Origin: Promethearchaeota archaeon
GTDB lineage: Archaea > Asgardarchaeota > Lokiarchaeia > Sigyniarchaeales > SOKP01
Length of the DNA stretch: 11,724 nt
Direction: 5' to 3'
Assembly (NCBI GenBank): GCA_013375475.1
Contig: JABXKD010000085.1
Span: 1 to 11,724, forward strand
The notes beneath the pieces were generated by a model that saw nothing but the letters and a program-made list of their open reading frames with translations, did no database searches and was not told the origin of the DNA. Each line of letters begins with the position of its first letter. Position 1 is the stretch's first letter. The translations under genes and the position numbers were made by a program. Positions 1 to 11,724 of the stretch are shown here, one piece after another.

Positions 1-3000
1 AGTTTTAGTTTGTTTTTCTTATATTGGTTTAGTCAAAATGTATTTCCTGATAATGTGGTGATAACGAATATCGTGTTTGTTGTTTTCGCTATATCTTTAT
101 TGGTACCTTTGATCTACCGATTAAGAATGTGGAAGATTATTACTATTCTATGGCTAATTTACACCGGCGTTAACATTACATTTCTCTTCGCTTTATTTTT
201 GGAAATCGGTTTACCCTTAGAGATTATTTTATCAATCAATATAATCATATTAGGTTTATTTTTTCTGATTTTATCATTTTTCCCCAATCTTAAAAACATT
301 AAAAATATAGTTCTCGTAGGATCTTATCTTACATCTCTAATTGGACTTTTCCTTACAATATTTTACATCATAAATGGAATAATCTTTAATATTTACATAT
401 CAATCAATTTAGCCTTTATAACAATTGCTTTAAGTTTATTTTCATCAAGACTACTTAAATTCAACAAGACTTTTTTTAATGTCTTAATCTCATCAATATT
501 GGTTGTAAATTTCTCGCTCTTTACTTACAATACGCTTGTTCTGATTCCGGATTTCGAATTTTTTTCAATATTTCTAGCAATTACGGTATTTGGAGGTTCT
601 CTTTTCATATTTAATAAATACAGAATGATTATTCCGATAAAAAAGATAATCCCCTTGACGATTTTATCGCTTGGTGTGTCTTTAACATTATCTTTACTAA
701 CATATGTGTTCCTCCCTGGCTTTATTTATTTAACAATTGCCGTTTTTATCTTAGTAAATTCAATTTTTCTTAGATCGGTACTCTATGAATACCGTTCTAT
801 TTTGTGGTATGCCTTTCCAATTCCATTAATCTTAATATTTTTGCAATTTATGGTATTAATTGATTTATTTCAATCTCCTTTTATTATATCTTTATTATCT
901 CTGCTATTTTATACTGCTTTATTTCAAATTCCTTGCATGGTGTACAGGAAAAATGTTAAGAAACAAGAAGATCTTAAAGATTTTGGTTTACTTAAAGTTG
1001 AATCAATTCTCTCATTGTTTTTACATTTTGAAATAGGATTATTGAGTTTTAGTTTAATCAGTGAAAATTTGGATATTAGTTTCTTTGAAACAGCTTTACT
1101 CTCTGCAATAATCTTCTTCGTCTCAACTTTATTCGAAATCCATATTATTAAGAAAGTTAACGAAAAAATAATATATTCCTTTAATATTATTGCCTACATC
1201 TTTATTTCCATTGGTTTATTCATATTTTTAAACCAATTTATCGCGATAGATGTATCTATATTCGTCTTAAATCTAGTAATACTTTTAACATTACAATTCT
1301 ATACGCTTTATGCGTTATGCCATTACATTGGAAAACTAACTCAATACGAGGAAAGTGTAATAAAGAAAGTTAGAAAACAGATACAAAATATTTTACTAAA
1401 TTCAATTTTCGTAATAGTTAGTTTGTACATTTCATTATTATTGAGCAATTTACTAATCGCATATAATCCATCATTAACGGGATATCCATCATTAAGTTTC
1501 TCTGGAATGATATTTTCTCTATTGATGTTTATCCTTAACGGATTAGTGAATCGCACAATAGAAATTAAAATCAAAAATATTATTTTATTAGGCGCTTATA
1601 TTTTCTTTCAATTCTTTTTTGCCGCCTTTTGGATAGCTTTTTTCACAATATTTGATCTTTTTGATGTATTTAGAATTCTCTTAATTATAATATCTGAAAC
1701 AATCTTTACCTCCTTTACGATATACATATCAGGAAAAGTAACTAAAAGCGAGAAATGGAAGGAAACCATAAAGAAAATATATTCGTTTATTATATTTTGC
1801 ATTTATCTAGAAACCTCATTCTTGTTTTTAGGATTATTTCAATTATTCCTAGGCTTCTATGAAAGCTTACTGTTTTCACAGATCATATTATTCTTGATAA
1901 GTATAATAGAAATTTATGCTATTAAGCGTCTTAAGGAAGGATCTATGGAAATAGTACACACAATAAGTTTCGTAAATATCTCCTGGATTCTTTTTATCAT
2001 TTTATATAGCATGTTTAGTTATTCTACGCTCTTTTTAGTTTTAATAGTGTTTTTAATGATTTTATTGCAATTTTACACGAATTATTCATATTTTGATATT
2101 AGGCGAAAGTTCAATCCAGAAAAATTGAATGTATTCTTAAAATGGAAGGATTTTAGAAAAAATATATTAGGATGGGGTGTTTACATACTTCTTTTGGGGA
2201 GTATTTTTAACTTATTCGCAATTTTAGGCTTTGAATTTTATTTAATTATCTTAATTATAAGCCTGACCACACATTTACTAGCTCTATTTGATAAATATAT
2301 GTTAAAGTTTTTAGGAAACGCATCGAATTTCTTTATAAGCTTTTCTTGGATCATATTGATTGGCTTTTCAATTTTATTCTATCTTGAATGGATTTCTATA
2401 TCCTTTATCCAGATAATACCGATAATTATTTTTATCTTAATAATTCAATTCGCCTACCTATTTAGATTATTGAAGGATTGGGAGTTTATCAAAAAAAACC
2501 AATCAAAAATTAACATTTCTCTTGTGAAGCTGGTTTATCTTAACTTAATCACTTGGCCTTTATATTATATTAGCTCTGATTTGTTTATTTCACTGAATTT
2601 AGTTCTTTTTTCGTTTATAGTTTTGCTGGTGTTAACATTCCTGGACGATTACGTTAAAACAATAACAGAAAAGAATAGGAAATATCTAAAGGTCACGAGT
2701 TTCGCCATTACTGAAGTTTTGTTATCCTCTGATATATTTTTGGCTTTAGAATTATTTGTAAATCCTAATATAATTCTTAACATTAGCATTGCTTTATGCT
2801 TCTTTATGATTGTAAATTTAGGGTTATTTAAACCTTTTAAACGCAAGAAAATAAGTTCTTTCCTCTATACTTTAGCTTTGTTTTTGTTGTTAAGTATAAT
2901 TACATTTAATATGTCATTATCGGGCTGGAGTTTCTCATTGATTTTTGTAGGAATTTTGCTATACCTATTTGTTTTTATGCTGGAAGAATTGAAAGCCTTT

Positions 3001-3564
3001 TTCAACAATATCGTAGATAATTTAAGATTAATGTTTATAAAGTTGAAGAACTTCCTTCTAAGAGGATATTATAAGCTCGTTAATTTCTTAAAAAATAACA
3101 TTAGGTTTATAATGTATATTCTTTGTGTGTTCGCGGGTATAATTGTGGGAATAACTTTTTCTGAAATTGGTTTATGGCCATTGCTAAGATGGGATCATGC
3201 AACCTTATTAGCCCCGGCAACTTCTGGAATTTTAATTTCTTTAATCCCACCTAAGAAAACCGACGACCTAGATATAGTTTTTAGGAAACGGATGCAACGA
3301 TTTATAACTCTTTGGGTTAGTTTTACAGCTTTTGTGTTTGTACTAATACTACCATATATTACATCATTTCTTTTCGGTTTGATTCTGATTCTTTCATCTG
3401 TAATTATATTAGGAGCAATATTGGCTATTTATATATACAGAATTGAAAAAAAACAGAAGATTTCAATCAAGTGGAGGTTTTACACAACAATAGTTTTAAT
3501 AACCCTAACGATTACTTGGGCTCTGTTATTAGTTGTTTTTTACCTTACTGAAGTTGCAGTATAA
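1..3564 (+). CDS. Giant polytopic membrane protein of unknown function, 5'-truncated by the window edge, with internal ~260-aa repeats
   Basis: The frame is open from base 1 (AGT TTT AGT TTG...), so the TTG at 10 is probably not the true start. More than 1180 aa of ~20-aa hydrophobic stretches separated by Lys-rich loops (roughly 30 TM segments by eye). Stop TAA at 3562-3564. No catalytic or transporter motif recognised. Confidence 0.85.
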   Translation, partial: SFSLFFLYWFSQNVFPDNVVITNIVFVVFAISLLVPLIYRLRMWKIITILWLIYTGVNITFLFALFLEIGLPLEIILSINIIILGLFFLILSFFPNLKNIKNIVLVGSYLTSLIGLFLTIFYIINGIIFNIYISINLAFITIALSLFSSRLLKFNKTFFNVLISSILVVNFSLFTYNTLVLIPDFEFFSIFLAITVFGGSLFIFNKYRMIIPIKKIIPLTILSLGVSLTLSLLTYVFLPGFIYLTIAVFILVNSIFLRSVLYEYRSILWYAFPIPLILIFLQFMVLIDLFQSPFIISLLSLLFYTALFQIPCMVYRKNVKKQEDLKDFGLLKVESILSLFLHFEIGLLSFSLISENLDISFFETALLSAIIFFVSTLFEIHIIKKVNEKIIYSFNIIAYIFISIGLFIFLNQFIAIDVSIFVLNLVILLTLQFYTLYALCHYIGKLTQYEESVIKKVRKQIQNILLNSIFVIVSLYISLLLSNLLIAYNPSLTGYPSLSFSGMIFSLLMFILNGLVNRTIEIKIKNIILLGAYIFFQFFFAAFWIAFFTIFDLFDVFRILLIIISETIFTSFTIYISGKVTKSEKWKETIKKIYSFIIFCIYLETSFLFLGLFQLFLGFYESLLFSQIILFLISIIEIYAIKRLKEGSMEIVHTISFVNISWILFIILYSMFSYSTLFLVLIVFLMILLQFYTNYSYFDIRRKFNPEKLNVFLKWKDFRKNILGWGVYILLLGSIFNLFAILGFEFYLIILIISLTTHLLALFDKYMLKFLGNASNFFISFSWIILIGFSILFYLEWISISFIQIIPIIIFILIIQFAYLFRLLKDWEFIKKNQSKINISLVKLVYLNLITWPLYYISSDLFISLNLVLFSFIVLLVLTFLDDYVKTITEKNRKYLKVTSFAITEVLLSSDIFLALELFVNPNIILNISIALCFFMIVNLGLFKPFKRKKISSFLYTLALFLLLSIITFNMSLSGWSFSLIFVGILLYLFVFMLEELKAFFNNIVDNLRLMFIKLKNFLLRGYYKLVNFLKNNIRFIMYILCVFAGIIVGITFSEIGLWPLLRWDHATLLAPATSGILISLIPPKKTDDLDIVFRKRMQRFITLWVSFTAFVFVLILPYITSFLFGLILILSSVIILGAILAIYIYRIEKKQKISIKWRFYTTIVLITLTITWALLLVVFYLTEVAV

Positions 3565-3965: not shown

Positions 3966-4928
3966 TTATTTGATACTTTCGATCGAAATTTTAGGATTGG
4001 TTAGGTTTATACCTATCTCCCTGAGTTCATTAATGATTTTATCGACAATTTGTTTTGCTTCAGAATTTCTCTTCAAACCACTTATCATCATTTTACCCTT
4101 AGAAAATAAAATGATTGTAGCGCTTGGGTTCTGGTTTTTAATAATCAACCCGGGAAATTTCTCTGGATTAAACTCAGCATTTTCGATTTTTTGAGCGATT
4201 TGACTCAGGTCTAACTTTTTTTCAATCTCCAATGACACGGTTATTTCATGCTTCGAAATTCTTTGATGTAACACTATCTCTATTTTTTTATAGAATTCTT
4301 TTAAATTACCTTTCAAATCTTCATAAAATCTTCTAACATCTGCTTGTTCTTCTTCAGAAAATGAATCTAAATCATTTATGTATAAAGCTTTGAAATTATC
4401 TTGAGTAGCACTTAATTGCGATTCAAAATCAGTACAGAGAGAGTGAATTATTTCTTCAATCGCTTGATTAATTTTCCGATCTAAACTTACACTGATCATT
4501 AACATTTCTTTATTTCCACGAGCCCAATCCGAGTGGAGTTCAAAATAATAATTTGCGGAAGATATAATACTGGATTGATTGATGAAAAATCTTTCTTTAG
4601 AAGCTTGAATCATTATTTCAGCGATACTTTCTTTTTCTAAATTATTCAGAACATTCTCTGGAAATGAATAGAATACATGAGGACCACTTCTTCTTTTAAA
4701 GAAGGTCAATGTAACAGTAGTTTTTGTAGCGAGTTTCGCTTCAGGGATTAAAATAAGAGTATAAGAAACATCAGGATCAAGGAGTTCATCATCAATATAC
4801 GCTTTACTTATAGGAAATTTAGCCCCATTCTTATGTACCCTTAACATTTGACGCCTTAGGCTTATGCCCCCAAATTTATGTGAATCTACGATCATTTTTT
4901 TTCTATCTTTTTCATTCATGATTTCCAT
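3966..4928 (-). CDS. Three-domain fusion: AbrB/MazE-like N-terminus + longin/uDENN-like domain + one TATA-binding-protein (TBP) repeat
   Basis: aa ~224-320 match one archaeal TBP repeat (LDLSQIA...AEFNPEKFPGLIIK..NPSATIILFSKGKMMISG.K). aa ~70-220 show the uDENN/longin pattern TFF...GP...YSFP plus YYFELHSDWARGNKEMLMISV. aa ~20-63 resemble a swapped hairpin (GAKFPISKAYID..LL.P...YTLILIP). RBS-like GAGGT lies 8 nt before the ATG. Confidence 0.85.
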   Translation of the reverse strand: MEIMNEKDRKKMIVDSHKFGGISLRRQMLRVHKNGAKFPISKAYIDDELLDPDVSYTLILIPEAKLATKTTVTLTFFKRRSGPHVFYSFPENVLNNLEKESIAEIMIQASKERFFINQSSIISSANYYFELHSDWARGNKEMLMISVSLDRKINQAIEEIIHSLCTDFESQLSATQDNFKALYINDLDSFSEEEQADVRRFYEDLKGNLKEFYKKIEIVLHQRISKHEITVSLEIEKKLDLSQIAQKIENAEFNPEKFPGLIIKNQNPSATIILFSKGKMMISGLKRNSEAKQIVDKIINELREIGINLTNPKISIESIK

Positions 4929-4962
4929 AATAAATTACCTCTATAAGATCAATTGAAATGAT

Positions 4963-4972
4963 TATTTATAAA
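4963..4972 (-). promoter_or_regulatory. Putative archaeal TATA box for the TBP-domain fusion gene
   Basis: Minus strand reads TTTATAAATA ~35-45 nt upstream of the ATG at 4928, in a divergent AT-rich intergenic region. Confidence 0.45.
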
Positions 4973-5108
4973 TTTATGTTATATTTAATGAATTATTAAT
5001 TGAACAATTAGATGAACATATAACGCAAATATCAGAATTTGCTTAGATTTTCTATATTTTGATATAAAAGAGAAAATTAAATATTAATCGAAGTTTTTAG
5101 TGAATATT

Positions 5109-5654
5109 ATGGAACAAAATAACAATGCTAAAAATTTAAATGTTCGAGACTGGATTGTTCTTAGCACAACTATGATTGCTGCGGTCTTAACGATCCTCGC
5201 TTTAATTTGGCAAGCGCGTCCTTCCACAGGTATTGTCAGTATCACATTCTTACTAATGCTTTCGTTTGTGTTTTTCGTCAATTCCGTCTCATCTAATTCT
5301 AGAGCTAATTTTGAGGCCAAAGTGGGGAAGATATCAGAAAAAAAAATTAGTAATTTTGTTACTTTTGCGGAGTATTCGTTCGGATTCGGTTTCACTCTGG
5401 TCATTAATGCGTTTTCTATCCTAGGTTATAAGTATCTCTTAGATTTTATGGGACGAGAGGTTTACGTTTTGATCTTACCGATAGCATTCCTGTTAACAGC
5501 ATGGATTATAATCATAATTTACAATTTTATAAACTATTCTGGAAAAGTATGGAGAGGTTTGAGGAGTTTAAAGCGAAATCTTTGGACACTCCTAGAAATA
5601 ATTTGTTTAGTATTTATAGTGCTTGATTTCTTTGGTATATTAGTAATTCCTTAA
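5109..5654 (+). CDS. Hypothetical membrane protein (~5 TM helices)
   Basis: ORF 5100(GTG)/5109(ATG)-5654 with about five hydrophobic segments; ATG at 5109 preferred. No recognisable motif. Confidence 0.75.
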   Translation: MEQNNNAKNLNVRDWIVLSTTMIAAVLTILALIWQARPSTGIVSITFLLMLSFVFFVNSVSSNSRANFEAKVGKISEKKISNFVTFAEYSFGFGFTLVINAFSILGYKYLLDFMGREVYVLILPIAFLLTAWIIIIIYNFINYSGKVWRGLRSLKRNLWTLLEIICLVFIVLDFFGILVIP

Positions 5655-5682
5655 ATTTTTCTTATAATTAAAGTGATAAAAA

Positions 5683-6306
5683 ATGCCAGTCAAAGTAGAC
5701 TTCAAGAAAAGTATGAAGGAGTATTATCAACCCAAACCAAATGAAGTTGTGTTAGTTAACGTACCTGAAATGCAGTTCCTAATGATTAATGGTATGGGGT
5801 CTCCTGGAGATTCAAAAGAGTATCAAGATGCTCTCGCTGCTTTATATCCTATATCATTCAAAACAAAATTCTTAAGCAAGGCGAATGGAAAAGATTATGT
5901 CGTACCTCCCTTGGAAGGATTATGGTGGGCTGATAATATGGATGATTTCATCGAGGGAAACCGAGATAAGTGGAAGTGGACAATGATGATTATGCAACCT
6001 GATTGGATTACCCAAGATATGATTAATGAAGCTATAACTATTACTGAGGAGAAGAAACCTGAACTTTCAAATCTAATTTCAAAACTTAGGTTAGAAAAAT
6101 ACAATGAAGGAAAAGCAGCTCAAATTATGCACATTGGTCCCTATTCAGAGGAGGGTCCTACAGTTCAGAAAGTTCACGATTTTATTCAAAAAGAAGGGGG
6201 TAAATTTGATGGCCAAAAAAATAAGCATCATGAAATCTATCTTAGTGACCCGAGGAAAGCTAACCCCGCTACTATGAAAACTGTTATCAGACAATCATTT
6301 ATTTAA
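5683..6306 (+). CDS. GyrI-like small-molecule-binding domain protein (COG4832 / Lin2189-YtkR7-like)
   Basis: Characteristic motifs VVPPLEGLWW, W.WTMMIMQP, HIGPYSEE and HHEIYLSDPRK. GTGAT RBS upstream. Confidence 0.9.
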   Translation: MPVKVDFKKSMKEYYQPKPNEVVLVNVPEMQFLMINGMGSPGDSKEYQDALAALYPISFKTKFLSKANGKDYVVPPLEGLWWADNMDDFIEGNRDKWKWTMMIMQPDWITQDMINEAITITEEKKPELSNLISKLRLEKYNEGKAAQIMHIGPYSEEGPTVQKVHDFIQKEGGKFDGQKNKHHEIYLSDPRKANPATMKTVIRQSFI

Positions 6307-7099: not shown

Positions 7100-7116
7100 T
7101 ATTTTAATGATTATAT

Positions 7117-7140
7117 CAGTCACTGGTAGTCCAGTCACTG
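7117..7140. promoter_or_regulatory. Putative PadR operator: two CAGTCACTG palindromes forming a 24-bp imperfect inverted repeat
   Basis: CAGTCACTG at 7117-7125 and 7132-7140. Full element CAGTCACTGG-TAGT-CCAGTCACTG. It covers the expected transcription start ~25 nt downstream of the TATA box. Confidence 0.65.
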
Positions 7141-7190
7141 TAGTATTTTTTGCTCATAGAAGTACAATTATTCATTATCTTAGATTAATT

Positions 7191-7775
7191 ATGGTTGAAA
7201 ATTACAACAAGAATTTCGAAAAAGTGATGAAAAAAAATTTTACTAATATCTTTATTCTTTCTATTCTTGAAAAAGGGCCTTCTCATGGTTATAAGATAGG
7301 AAATGAAATTGAAAAGCGTAGTCTAGGAATGTGGAACCCATCTGCATCGACATTATATTGGATCCTAAATAATTTAAGGGAAAAGGGATTCATTCGACTC
7401 CTTGAAGAAGATAAGGTTAAGAAAGTATATGAAATTACAGATATGGGTGAAGAAGCATTAAGATTAATGAAAGCAACTCAAAAAAAGATAAGAAATACCT
7501 ATCGTCGGTTTTTAGCTGCATCGATAGATATTAGAGATTCAAGTGATTTAGAGGATCTCGAACGGTTTGAAGAAATTCCTTCAATCCAAGTGTTACCAAC
7601 CGCATTAAGACCAGAACGATTTAAAGGTAATATATCCCTTAATGAAAGAATCACACTTCTTGAAACTAAAAAAGCAGCACTTGTAGAAACTCGAGATCGG
7701 ATGGATGAATATATCAAGGACTTTGATAATACAATCTTAAAACTCAGAAATGAACTGGGCAAACAGGAAAATTAA
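7191..7775 (+). CDS. PadR-family winged-helix transcriptional regulator with C-terminal coiled coil
   Basis: Motif ILSILEKGPSHGY.I..EIE.RS.G.W.PSASTLY..L..L.EKG.I......KKVYEITD.G.EAL. ATG at 7191 is preferred over 7107, whose extension overlaps the promoter and operator. Confidence 0.92.
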   Translation: MVENYNKNFEKVMKKNFTNIFILSILEKGPSHGYKIGNEIEKRSLGMWNPSASTLYWILNNLREKGFIRLLEEDKVKKVYEITDMGEEALRLMKATQKKIRNTYRRFLAASIDIRDSSDLEDLERFEEIPSIQVLPTALRPERFKGNISLNERITLLETKKAALVETRDRMDEYIKDFDNTILKLRNELGKQEN

Positions 7776-7809
7776 AAAAAGTTATGAAATATTGAGAGTT
7801 GATAAAAAA

Positions 7810-8784
7810 ATGAGTAATGATACAACTAAAAAAGCAATTAATTTCCTTAGTTTTCTCATATCCTATAAATGTACTAATGAATGCAAACATTGTGCTCTTC
7901 TAGCATCTCCAAATCAGGATGATATCAAAATAGAATTTGGAGATTTAAAAAGATATTTGGAAGACATAACATCAAACTATATCGTTCAAGAAGTCGGATT
8001 TTTTGGAGGAGAACCCCTACTTAATTTTGATTTACTAATCAGTTTTATCGAAGAAGTAAAGAAATATGATATTCCAAAAATTGGATTACCAACTAATGGA
8101 TATTGGGGAAAAAGTGATTCAATTGCTAAGAAATATGCCCTAAAACTGAAAAAAGCAGGTTTAAATAGCATAGGGTTTAGTGTTGATGCATTTCATCAGG
8201 AGTTTATTCCACTCGATGATGTAAAGATAGCAGTAAGAGCGTGTCATGAAGCGGGAATAGAAATAATATATTTGATATCACAAAAGCTTGGAGGCCCAGG
8301 AGCAAAGAACATATTTAATGAAAAAACCAACGAAATTACCGATATCCTTTCAGATGAATTTGATTATGGCCAATTAATAACTAGTGATTTACAAGTGAAA
8401 GGTCGGGCTGCAAACCATTTAACAGAATATTTCTCAATGGTAACAATCCCTTCAGATAAATGTCTAATTTTTAAGGTCCCGATGTTCATGATAGATCCTA
8501 ATGGATGGGTTTTTCATCAACTATGCGACGGGATTACAATCGGGAATGCCAAGAAAAAGTCTTTATCGGAGATAATTAGTGAATTTAGCTACAGAAAACA
8601 CCCTATTATAGGAAAAGTAGTGACTAAGGGAGGACCTCAAAATCTCCTTGAGATGGCGATTGAAAAAGGGTATGAGCCTTTAAGTGGATATGCTGACAAG
8701 TGTCACGTCTGTTATAGTGCTCGTAATTATCTTCGTCCTTATTATCCAAATATCCTTGAACCTTCAAATTTGTACTTCCAATGA
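7810..8784 (+). CDS. Radical SAM protein with C-terminal SPASM/Twitch-like Cys-containing extension
   Basis: CxxxCxxC (CTNECKHC, 7870-7893), GGEP, TNG and SVD motifs. C-terminal C...IDPNG.V...C...IGN and CHVC. ATG at 7810 follows GAGTTGATAAAAAA, 34 nt after the padR stop. Substrate unknown. Confidence 0.9.
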   Translation: MSNDTTKKAINFLSFLISYKCTNECKHCALLASPNQDDIKIEFGDLKRYLEDITSNYIVQEVGFFGGEPLLNFDLLISFIEEVKKYDIPKIGLPTNGYWGKSDSIAKKYALKLKKAGLNSIGFSVDAFHQEFIPLDDVKIAVRACHEAGIEIIYLISQKLGGPGAKNIFNEKTNEITDILSDEFDYGQLITSDLQVKGRAANHLTEYFSMVTIPSDKCLIFKVPMFMIDPNGWVFHQLCDGITIGNAKKKSLSEIISEFSYRKHPIIGKVVTKGGPQNLLEMAIEKGYEPLSGYADKCHVCYSARNYLRPYYPNILEPSNLYFQ

Positions 8785-10648: not shown

Positions 10649-11724
10649 CTATTCGATATAGCACGATAAATCCTTTTGTTCAGATTTCCTCATAATATTC
10701 GATTTTATCAGTTCCTCAAGTTCGGGAAACTCGAAAGGAAAAATGTTTTCAAAGGCTCTTTTAAGTAATTCGACATATTTCTTTCTGTCGTACTGATGCT
10801 TTTTCTCGTCGTAAAGATCTGAGAGAATAACCTTATTCTCAGGAAATTCCGGGTTAGCATCTGCATTGAGTATAATATATCGTACATTTTTGCCAGGGGT
10901 TACCACTACCCCCGATCTCTCCAATTGTTTTGCCGCAACAGCTTGATAGGAGTTTACTTTATATTGAGATGGTTTCCTGGAAACTCTTTGGCGAATTGTA
11001 AGTTCTTCTCGCGAAATTTTTCCTGTCTCTATTTTGTCAATGTAATTGTAGAGTGTTTTCTTCGCTTTTGGCATTCTTCTCATAAATTCTTTGGTGGTAG
11101 TTGCTCCTTGAAAAACATCTATAAACGCATATTGTGCGACTTTAACAATTTTTGGTGCATCTCTACGGCGAACTTCAATTCCTCGGACTTTTACTTCTCC
11201 GTCGCTCTTAATACCCCAGTAATGACTTAACGCAGGAATATCGGATTCCGCTTTCGAAGGGAGAAAACAAATAACATTATAACGCCCGTCCCAACTCATA
11301 GGAATACCCACGCTTTCGGTTATTTCAGCAGCTATTTCTCTTGTTACTTCTTCAAACTCTTCGGGAGTCCGGTTTTCAGTGTCTTTCAGCCAAATCGAAT
11401 CTACAATTCCATGAATAATTTTGCAGCCGCGTTCTTCAGCAATCTCAGCAGAGCGCATTAAAAATTCCCTAGCAAAAGCACAAACGGTTTGATGCGCTTC
11501 AATCTTCCCAAAACGGGCGTTTTTGAAACCTAAATAGCCAAAACTCACTACAAGCACCCATTTGAGAGCGATATCCACAAAGTTATAACGAACGCTTCCG
11601 GTTTTGCGGACATATTCTTTGTACTTCAGCCTCTTATTCAAAGGCAGACTTATTGATTTTGATATTATACCTTGCCTTTTTGTGCAGATGTGAAAGTCCA
11701 ATCCTGGAACTTTTATGCCAGTGC
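10649..11724 (-). CDS. polB2: Archaeal family B DNA polymerase, PolB2 (Dpo2-like) group; C-terminal part only, 5' end outside the window
   Basis: The frame stays open to the window edge (TGIKVPGLDFHIC...). Motif B ALKWVLVVSFGYLG, motif C HGIVDS (11396-11413; PolB2-type, versus canonical YGDTDS), thumb motif RGIEVRRRD, and C-terminal PIP box QKDLSCYI (10655-10678). Confidence 0.9.
   Translation of the reverse strand, partial: TGIKVPGLDFHICTKRQGIISKSISLPLNKRLKYKEYVRKTGSVRYNFVDIALKWVLVVSFGYLGFKNARFGKIEAHQTVCAFAREFLMRSAEIAEERGCKIIHGIVDSIWLKDTENRTPEEFEEVTREIAAEITESVGIPMSWDGRYNVICFLPSKAESDIPALSHYWGIKSDGEVKVRGIEVRRRDAPKIVKVAQYAFIDVFQGATTTKEFMRRMPKAKKTLYNYIDKIETGKISREELTIRQRVSRKPSQYKVNSYQAVAAKQLERSGVVVTPGKNVRYIILNADANPEFPENKVILSDLYDEKKHQYDRKKYVELLKRAFENIFPFEFPELEELIKSNIMRKSEQKDLSCYIE

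Follow-up and report, generated by a model that had tools for sequence, protein, structure and literature searches.

A longin protein of Lokiarchaeia-type Asgard archaea with a single TBP repeat and a conserved operator-like array in its promoter

The gene studied here is located on the minus strand, at positions 3966..4928, of an 11,724-nucleotide stretch of DNA from a Promethearchaeota archaeon (hereafter the window, which is contig C272 of its genome). It encodes a 320-residue protein in which an unclassified N-terminal domain (N-domain), a longin domain of the class found in GTPase-activating protein (GAP) complexes and a single repeat of the TATA-binding protein TBP follow one another. 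We identified the domains of this protein, the single origin of its TBP lobe, and the conservation of both the fusion and an operator-like array in the promoter of the gene. The reading that we favour, to which we assign a probability of about 0.45, is that the protein is a regulator of Lokiarchaeia-type Asgard archaea which binds DNA as a homodimer and probably controls its own gene. Its longin domain would couple it to a small GTPase and, in one clade, its TBP lobe would work at or near the TATA box.

In the mechanism that we propose, the dimer formed by the N-domain would bind TGTTCA hexamers located 12 nt apart, just upstream of the TATA box of its own gene. The longin platform would dock one of the many small GTPases, possibly as a GAP by means of its GP motif and of arginine R137, and the occupancy of the promoter would depend on the GTPase state, or the reverse. 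In one clade, an appended copy of the N-lobe of the cell's own TBP, with both kinking phenylalanines, would constitute an accessory output module and would probably touch the adjacent TATA DNA or basal factors. We infer these contacts with DNA, with a GTPase and with the basal machinery from the evidence presented below.

A conserved fusion with a copied TBP lobe

The reading frame is uninterrupted (translation table 11) and ends with the stop codon at 3966-3968. The protein was modelled with AlphaFold2 (AF2), as a whole with a mean predicted local distance difference test (pLDDT) of 81.5, and over aa 1-222, using an alignment of 43 sequences, with a mean pLDDT of 88.9. The original prediction, made from the nucleotide sequence, had distinguished three segments in this open reading frame (ORF). 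They were borne out by the translation, the AF2 models and Pfam, and correspond to aa 1-66, to aa 69-190 extended by a helix at 192-221, and to aa 223-320. The first ATG, M1 (4926-4928), reads ATA in two homologous loci (L010 and L011), and M4 (4917-4919) is the start conserved across all homologues, many of which are 317 aa long. On this comparison the annotated start is best corrected to M4, from which the ORF encodes 317 aa rather than 320.

Homologues were searched with an E-value threshold of 0.001 and the best 120 of the 250 proteins obtained were listed. Among these 120, 55 full-length clusters of 316-324 aa comprise the TBP domain (long form), and most of the others are about 220 aa long and end before it (short form). 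When one genome per species was considered, there were 6 long-form loci, 6 short-form loci and 19 loci with a longin only, and the 6 long-form loci belong to named metagenome-assembled genomes (MAGs). The fusion is thus present in other Asgard MAGs. The contigs of two sequencing runs from different studies, X3 (record 12, 4141-4520) and X4 (record 18, 4097-4397), span the junction between core and lobe near 4260 without any difference, and the misassembly that might have been suspected at this position was not found.

The genome bearing the window is itself metagenome-assembled (3.92 Mb, 288 contigs, 32.5% G+C, contamination 6.41%; its closest named relatives are Promethearchaeota/Promethearchaeia, i.e. 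Lokiarchaeia-type Asgard, MAGs). For this reason we considered whether assembly or gene calling had artificially joined two genes. Nothing was found in favour of such an artefact, which is ruled out for all practical purposes by the 55 full-length clusters from several sources, the 6 named MAG loci, the unbroken frame and the contigs bridging the junction. A separate observation concerns contig depth, which peaks at 4504-4547 in the sediment runs (up to 322 in X3), with many loose ends. The peak coincides with the longin motif N-Y-Y-F-E-I-x-S-x-W-A-R-G-N-K-E and probably originates from paralogues and relatives present in the same samples.

The lobe (aa 223-320; 3969..4262, minus strand) consists of one TBP repeat, extended by the linker between repeats and by the beginning of the strand that follows, as judged from Pfam, the PDB, sequence identity, a repeat tree and a column comparison. 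The Pfam TBP family PF00352 matched one stretch, aa 228-304, with an E-value of 1.5e-19 and 70 bits for a cut-off of 22.9, covering profile positions 6-84 out of 85. The NCBIfam models of whole TBPs scored 51-75 bits, below their cut-offs of 181-347; of the two tandem repeats that characterise a whole TBP, the protein possesses one only. A PDB sequence search matched TBPs down to an E-value of 4.2e-30 (2z8u, 39% identity over 90 columns). The lobe could be aligned with both repeats of the archaeal PDB TBPs, and better with the first one (61.0 versus 47.9 bits for the two repeats of 2z8u). The best Foldseek matches of the whole-protein AF2 model were also TBPs, over about 90 columns. The C-terminal segment had been described as a TBP fold and it proved to be a genuine one, with a single repeat.

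The same genome also encodes one canonical two-repeat TBP of 215 aa (contig C214), with which the lobe shares 47% identity on the N-repeat (102 bits) and 34% on the C-repeat (59 bits). A quick maximum-likelihood tree of repeats was calculated on 101 columns from 19 of the 55 fusion rows and from the N and C halves of 31 of the 82 canonical TBPs. In this tree the fusion repeats constitute one group (Shimodaira-Hasegawa-like approximate likelihood ratio test, SH-aLRT, 99), itself nested in a starred set (97) that also contains 11 N-repeats, among them that of the own TBP. Because of its identity to the own N-repeat and of this placement, we regard the lobe as the N-terminal half of an Asgard TBP, copied along with the inter-repeat linker.

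In TBP, two phenylalanines kink the DNA, and an Asn and a Val of strand 1 face the centre of the TATA box. The columns of the 55 fusion repeats were compared with those of 82 N-repeats and 82 C-repeats, in which 11 columns display the same residue in at least 80% of the sequences of both canonical repeats. Seven of these 11 columns are kept in the fusions (L241, P255, F258, P259, G260, F275 and G278). G284 is relaxed to 42%, the window having a G, and the canonical Y253 is replaced by F in 100% of the fusions. The strand-1 Asn (96% and 89% in the canonical N- and C-repeats, respectively) is lost in favour of I (58%), V (22%) or E (11%), the window having E228. Similarly, the strand-1 Val (90% and 89%, respectively) is lost in favour of T (56%), K (25%) or R (15%), the window having T230. 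The phenylalanine pair is kept, F258 in 100% and F275 in 95% of the 55 fusion sequences, and the FPGL and F-S-x-G-K motifs are present. Since the phenylalanine pair is kept but the strand-1 Asn and Val are lost, nucleic-acid binding by the lobe appears plausible and canonical TATA recognition doubtful.

TFB contacts the C-terminal stirrup of TBP. The stirrup of the lobe, FNPE, is of the N-repeat type, whereas C-repeats carry E there in 71% of the cases. The earlier suggestion that the protein competes for TFB is therefore unsupported, the lobe being derived from an N-terminal repeat and bearing an N-type stirrup. A related scenario, which we consider quite improbable, is that of a half-TBP decoy, in which the lobe would pair with or cap the cell's TBP or an N-lobe partner and would damp or redirect basal transcription according to the GTPase state. 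The proximity in sequence between the lobe and the own TBP N-repeat is in agreement with a decoy, as is the conservation of helix 1 and stirrup positions, which is higher than in canonical TBPs (Q246 98%, I248 100%, F253 100%, N254 91%). On the other side, the stirrup is not of the type known to bind TFB, and the lobe was lost at least once in proteins that kept the core, hence it is not essential to the function of the family.

The lobe resembles the archaeal TBPs of M. jannaschii (2z8u), S. acidocaldarius (1mp9) and P. woesei (1pcz), as well as the own 215-aa TBP, by the motifs of one repeat and the phenylalanine pair contained in aa 223-320. It differs from them by its one repeat instead of two, by the replacement of the strand-1 Asn and Val, and by the two further domains that precede it in the fusion. 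Halobacterial TbpA and other single-TBP-domain proteins are also made of a single repeat very similar to the host's full-length TBP, but they are reported as stand-alone proteins of Euryarchaea, whereas here the repeat is the C-terminal domain of an Asgard longin protein (Brindefalk et al. 2013, PMC3597702).

To trace the history of the fusion, a tree of the 220-aa core, comprising the N-domain and the longin, was calculated from 55 long forms, 59 short forms and 6 distant outgroup rows, six rows of odd length being left out (P0035, P0057, P0067, P0075, P0079 and P0114). Short forms are basal in this tree, and long forms constitute one clade in which 8 short forms are nested, 3 changes being needed. 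One of these nested short forms, L018, is found in a long-form gene neighbourhood, its stop codon being followed by about 400 nt devoid of any TBP remnant. No separate short copy was detected in the own genome by a profile search with aa 1-222. Given the single origin of the lobe, the core tree and the case of L018, the history reads as one gain of the lobe and at least one loss, the 220-aa core being the ancestral form. The TBP lobe is an accessory to this older two-domain protein. In a distant member of 409 aa (P0128), the N-domain and longin are followed by about 170 residues without Pfam match, and the family thus accepts C-terminal additions other than the TBP lobe.

The original prediction knew of no described protein combining these segments. 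Our literature search likewise turned up no paper with this architecture, although supplementary tables, which were outside the search, might list the family. For longin and TBP in archaea it yielded a single article, on ESCRT, in which 'TBP' denotes the fold of adaptin appendages. Each fold is known except that of the unclassified N-domain, and it is their combination that was found in no paper. Public records label the protein 'hypothetical protein', and the main text of the preprint by Liu et al. contains none of the terms 'TBP', 'TATA' or 'AbrB'.

The N-terminal dimer and the operator-like array

The N-domain (aa 1-66; 4731..4928, minus strand) is the candidate DNA-binding module and the most conserved part of the protein: in an alignment of 14 sequences, 28 of 68 columns show no variation. 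AF2 predicts a helix (6-17), two strands (22-28 and 35-40), a second helix (42-46) and a third strand (55-60). Modelled as a homodimer, the protein was predicted to form an intertwined assembly with an ipSAE of 0.58 (median of three runs), the best control being at 0.00. As a reference, 20 of 30 proteins whose structures are pairs of one chain attained that mark, against 1 of 23 whose structures are single chains. The runs share at least 85% of their contacts, with a partner pLDDT of at least 76. All of the confident interface falls within residues 1-63. Residues 59, 58 and 37 each meet their own counterpart in symmetric contacts (59:59, 58:58 and 37:37), while strand 24-28 of one chain pairs with strand 55-57 of its partner. 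These models support the formation of an intertwined homodimer by the N-domain, in line with the dimeric protein that had been anticipated.

The N-domain had also been called AbrB-like, and here the outcome was twofold. With respect to topology, the strand-strand-helix-strand part of the AbrB-type beta-beta-alpha-beta-beta fold was recovered in the model, the fourth strand not being modelled. This arrangement and the predicted intertwined homodimer recall the swapped hairpins of AbrB, SpoVT and MazE, from which the N-domain differs by the absence of sequence or profile similarity. Membership of that family was not retrieved. A search for PF04014 (AbrB/MazE) detected 93 sites with E-values up to 0.001 in the own genome and 12 relatives, and the longin-TBP locus was not among them; PF04014 was likewise absent from all 43 family members. 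Comparison of the N-domain with 30 PF04014 domains using hhalign gave probabilities of 0.2-0.3%, and the MraZ family (PF02381) gave no Pfam match at E-values up to 10. A PDB profile search of aa 1-68 gave designed proteins as best matches, with an E-value of 0.55, and a Protein Atlas search of the same residues gave no usable match. Because no Pfam, PDB or AbrB-profile match was found, the term AbrB-like is a description of topology and of a possible working mode, not of family membership.

Upstream of the gene and on its strand, three direct hexamers with a 12-nt period form an operator-like array (4989..5018), delineated by promoter alignment and motif counts. They are TGTTCA at 5013-5018, TGTTCA at 5001-5006 and a degenerate AATTCA at 4989-4994. 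The array is located just upstream of the TATA box TTTATAAAT (4964..4972, minus strand), which is followed by a hexamer-like ATTTCA (4954..4959, minus strand; TGTTCT in short forms) and by a Shine-Dalgarno-like GAGGT located 8 nt before M1 (4937..4941, minus strand). The gene had been credited with its own ribosome-binding site and TATA box, and both were found. Strings of either kind are common by chance in a genome with 32.5% G+C; both are nevertheless kept in an alignment of 10 homologous promoters. The TATA box is TTTATAAAT in long forms and ATATAAATA in short forms, and the Shine-Dalgarno-like element is kept as (A/G)GGT in 9 out of 10 rows (AAAGT in L014).

The homologous promoters exhibit direct TGTTCA repeats with a period of 11-12 nt upstream of the TATA box, and short forms as well as L018 contain an extra TGTTCA at the ribosome-binding site. 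The exact pair TGTTCA-N5/6-TGTTCA was detected once per locus, on the strand of the gene and 75-90 nt before the start, in 11 of the 12 loci encoding the N-domain. It was detected in none of the 20 longin loci without N-domain, nor elsewhere in the 319 kb of loci. Five of the 11 positive loci are short forms that have no flanking gene in common, either among themselves or with the window. The exception is L012, whose 5' end is disrupted. Its long-form gene (L012:1560-1800) lacks the first 18 codons in frame, has a stop just upstream and no TGTTCA pair; the corresponding protein in the public record is P0114 (229 aa), which may be a decaying or re-started copy. In the own genome, TGTTCA-N6-TGTTCA occurs in 2 copies, as does its backwards control. 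With N5-7 spacings, 4 exact pairs were counted, the other 3 being located inside ORFs; the gene's promoter is the only intergenic region of the genome in which the exact hexamer pair is present.

The array is a phylogenetic footprint, that of an operator staying with its gene, and its location in the own promoter suggests autoregulation. The conserved repeats add support to a DNA-binding role of the protein. MraZ is a member of the AbrB superfamily. In Mollicutes, MraZ is reported to have a series of direct repeats in its own promoter, essentially the only such site of the genome, which is comparable to the situation described here (PMC8475190).

A bolder version of the regulator, which we see as a long shot, makes the long form a promoter-specific, GTPase-gated TBP. 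The N-domain dimer at the operator would bring two identical N-lobes together, these would form a symmetric saddle over the TATA box, some 30 bp further downstream, and a small GTPase on the GAP-type longin would decide whether this saddle forms. The dimer model, in which contacts are named only within residues 1-63 and 119, is uninformative on such TBP-TBP pairing.

The longin domain and its link to small GTPases

The middle domain had been identified as a longin of the FLCN/SMCR8 type, which is supported both by its fold and by a sequence motif. It extends over aa 69-190 (4359..4724, minus strand) and belongs to the GAP class (NPRL2/FLCN/SMCR8-like), as deduced from AF2 (pLDDT of about 90) and Foldseek. 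Its elements are strands 71-78 and 82-89, helix 96-111, strands 114-117, 124-132 and 140-148, and helices 155-174 and 178-189. The resulting longin order, beta-beta-alpha-beta-beta-beta-alpha-alpha, was reproduced by both AF2 models. A long helix (aa 191-222; 4263..4358, minus strand), modelled at 192-221 with a pLDDT above 90, links the longin to the TBP repeat.

The AF2 model of aa 1-222 was compared with the PDB using Foldseek. Three matches were obtained with E-values up to 0.001, all of them with chains of GATOR1-KICSTOR entries. Further matches were chains of SEAC, DENND1A-Rab35, FLCN-FNIP2-Rag-Ragulator and additional GATOR1 entries; these are chains of complex entries, and the names of the entries do not fix which subunit was matched. 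Chain 8yqg_A, from the longin dimer of a Lokiarchaeota Roadblock-longin protein, was also matched with a template modelling (TM) score of 0.58 on the target. The top matches, which comprise GATOR1, SEAC, DENND1A and FLCN-FNIP2 chains as well as 8yqg, have a probability of 1.00. Among viral models, no match was found with an E-value up to 0.001, only weak longins. Sequence-based searches were less productive. No longin, folliculin or NPRL Pfam family was detected in the query or in any of the 43 family members, the Afi1 family giving weak matches in 3 of the 43 (best E-value 0.031). Searching the PDB with a profile of aa 1-222 brought no meaningful match, the best one being FliG with an E-value of 0.043.

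A GP motif, G82-P83 (4680..4685, minus strand), was located directly before longin strand 2 by alignment and AF2. Across the 43 sequences G82 never varies, and the conservation of P83 is at least 90%. This motif ends the loop preceding strand 2 and is described, in a 2025 article, as specific to the GAP longins C9orf72, SMCR8, FLCN and NPRL2 and to an Asgard 'FLCN/SMCR8-type' longin class, which is reported there to retain an arginine finger also (PMC12290439). The label FLCN/SMCR8-type is supported here because the longin order, the structural matches with GAP complexes and the GP motif in its place all point to it. The candidate for the arginine finger is R137 (4518..4520, minus strand), selected on conservation. 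It belongs to the conserved loop S-x-W-A-R-G-x-K-E, which connects longin strands 4 and 5. Its conservation reaches at least 90% in alignments A1 and A2, and paralogues L005 and L006 have it too.

The longins of GATOR1/SEACIT (NPRL2/3), FLCN-FNIP, C9orf72-SMCR8 and the Asgard 'FLCN/SMCR8-type' class share with the protein the longin fold, the GP motif and a conserved arginine in a nearby loop (PMC12290439; 10.1101/2020.10.19.343400). The protein differs from them by the absence of Pfam match and of a DENN or NPRL C-terminal domain. In the place of such a domain, the longin is followed by the helix and the TBP repeat, its partners being thus a dimer domain and a TBP repeat.

The profile of aa 1-222 detects two paralogues in the own genome, L006 and L005. 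L006:1501-2541 (contig C88) encodes 346 aa, with the same longin type followed by a GTPase domain (Pfam Arf 7.2e-07, Ras 1.3e-06); its longin contains the GP motif and an L-A-R-G-G-K-E loop. L005:1501-2922 (contig C222) encodes 386 aa, namely an N-terminal longin and an unassigned 230-aa C-terminal part which, by eye, resembles two winged-helix repeats. An ORF of 84 aa located after L005 gave a weak winged-helix match (HTH_45, E-value 0.012). Outside the own genome, protein P0134 carries a Roadblock/LC7 domain ahead of the same longin type. Fusions of this kind, between longins and GTPases or Roadblock domains, have been described in Asgard archaea and are reported as generally not forming operons with their partners (PMC10933270; 10.1101/2020.10.19.343400). 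The Asgard Roadblock-longin and longin-GTPase fusions (Tran et al. 2024, PMC10933270; PDB 8yqg), like paralogues L006 and P0134, are of the same longin family, but they join the longin to parts of the GTPase cycle whereas the present protein joins it to modules of nucleic-acid type. Ras-family matches amount to 73 in the own genome and to 0 on the contig of the window. We also observed that the canonical TBP gene of the genome (L001, contig C214) has small Ras/Rab-like GTPase genes on both sides. The link to small GTPases proposed by the original prediction is plausible, inferred as it is from membership of a family whose paralogous longins are fused to an Arf/Ras GTPase or to a Roadblock domain; the protein may read the state of a GTPase and act at promoters, as that prediction had it.

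These data equally bear on an alternative to which we grant an appreciable minority chance, namely that the protein is chiefly a small-GTPase regulator, working as a platform for GAP or guanine nucleotide exchange factor (GEF) activity and not as a DNA binder. The N-domain would then only dimerise, the lobe would bind proteins in the manner of the helix-grip domains of adaptin appendages, and the array would be bound by another factor. The GAP class of the longin with its GP motif, the fusion of the paralogues to GTPase or Roadblock domains and an N-domain that resembles no known DNA binder by sequence are all compatible with this alternative. So are the loss of two central DNA-facing residues in the lobe and the fact that, in adaptin appendages, the TBP fold is reported to serve protein binding (PMC11188069). 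It accounts less well for a lobe that was recently copied from a true TBP repeat (47% identity) and has kept both phenylalanines and the FPGL and GK motifs, which pure protein binding would not need. Moreover, the exact hexamer pair has no second intergenic copy in the genome, as one would expect for an autoregulator more than for a shared factor.

The self-regulating DNA-binding regulator that we favour has to be weighed against several observations. Its N-domain has no relatives by Pfam, PDB sequence or AbrB profile outside its own family, and its TBP lobe has lost the strand-1 Asn and Val. Direct repeats are not the usual target of symmetric dimers, which mostly bind inverted ones. The array constitutes no proof of binding by this protein, since promoter and gene are inherited together and another factor could bind. 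Relaxed hexamer pairs (N5-7, at most 1 mismatch) are not enriched in the genome, with 74 occurrences versus 41-193 for five control words, hence no regulon is visible. On the GTPase side, R137 is only a candidate for the catalytic arginine, chosen on conservation, and there is no GTPase gene in the window nor any conserved GTPase neighbour among the homologous loci.

Gene neighbourhood and biological meaning

The beginning of the window (1-3564, plus strand) encodes a very large polytopic membrane protein of at least 1187 aa, without Pfam match, whose frame runs off the window start. It is a conserved convergent neighbour of the gene in L007-L009, L011, L012 and L018, with 37-93% identity. In L018 its frame runs off the end of the locus, with 1766 aa counted from the first start and 1860 aa open. 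On the other side, a small membrane protein of 184 aa without Pfam match (5100-5654, plus strand) is encoded divergently from the longin-TBP gene, and the region 5100-6306 of the same strand also contains the gene of a GyrI-like small-molecule-binding protein (PF06445). These two genes share a 170-nt intergenic region with the longin-TBP gene, and the hexamer array could act on them too. The small membrane-protein gene is kept in L007-L012 and L018, and the GyrI-like gene in L007-L011 and L018. No conserved neighbours were found at the short-form loci L013-L017. Further along the window (7107-8784, plus strand), the gene of a PadR-family regulator overlaps by 26 nt the start of a gene encoding a radical-SAM/4Fe-4S protein, an arrangement that resembles a regulator-enzyme pair. 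Finally, a frame that runs off the window end (10649-11722, minus strand) encodes the C-terminal portion of a DNA polymerase of family B (PF00136).

Asgard archaea possess dozens of small GTPases and of longin and Roadblock proteins and, to our knowledge, nobody knows the processes that they control. Here, a longin of the GAP class is joined to a likely DNA-binding dimer which has a defined and conserved operator in its own promoter. The output is testable, being limited to one promoter, one hexamer motif and one protein that exists in natural versions with and without TBP. The long form also provides a single-repeat TBP that arose in nature from a modern TBP, which bears on the origin of the two-lobed factor and on archaeal activators acting at the TATA box. 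If the long form turned out, against the odds, to be a GTPase-gated TBP, present-day cells would contain the kind of homodimeric single-repeat TBP from which TBP has been postulated to descend, and small-GTPase signalling in Asgard archaea would for the first time be connected directly with transcription initiation. Through this protein, GTPase signalling may be tied directly to a promoter.

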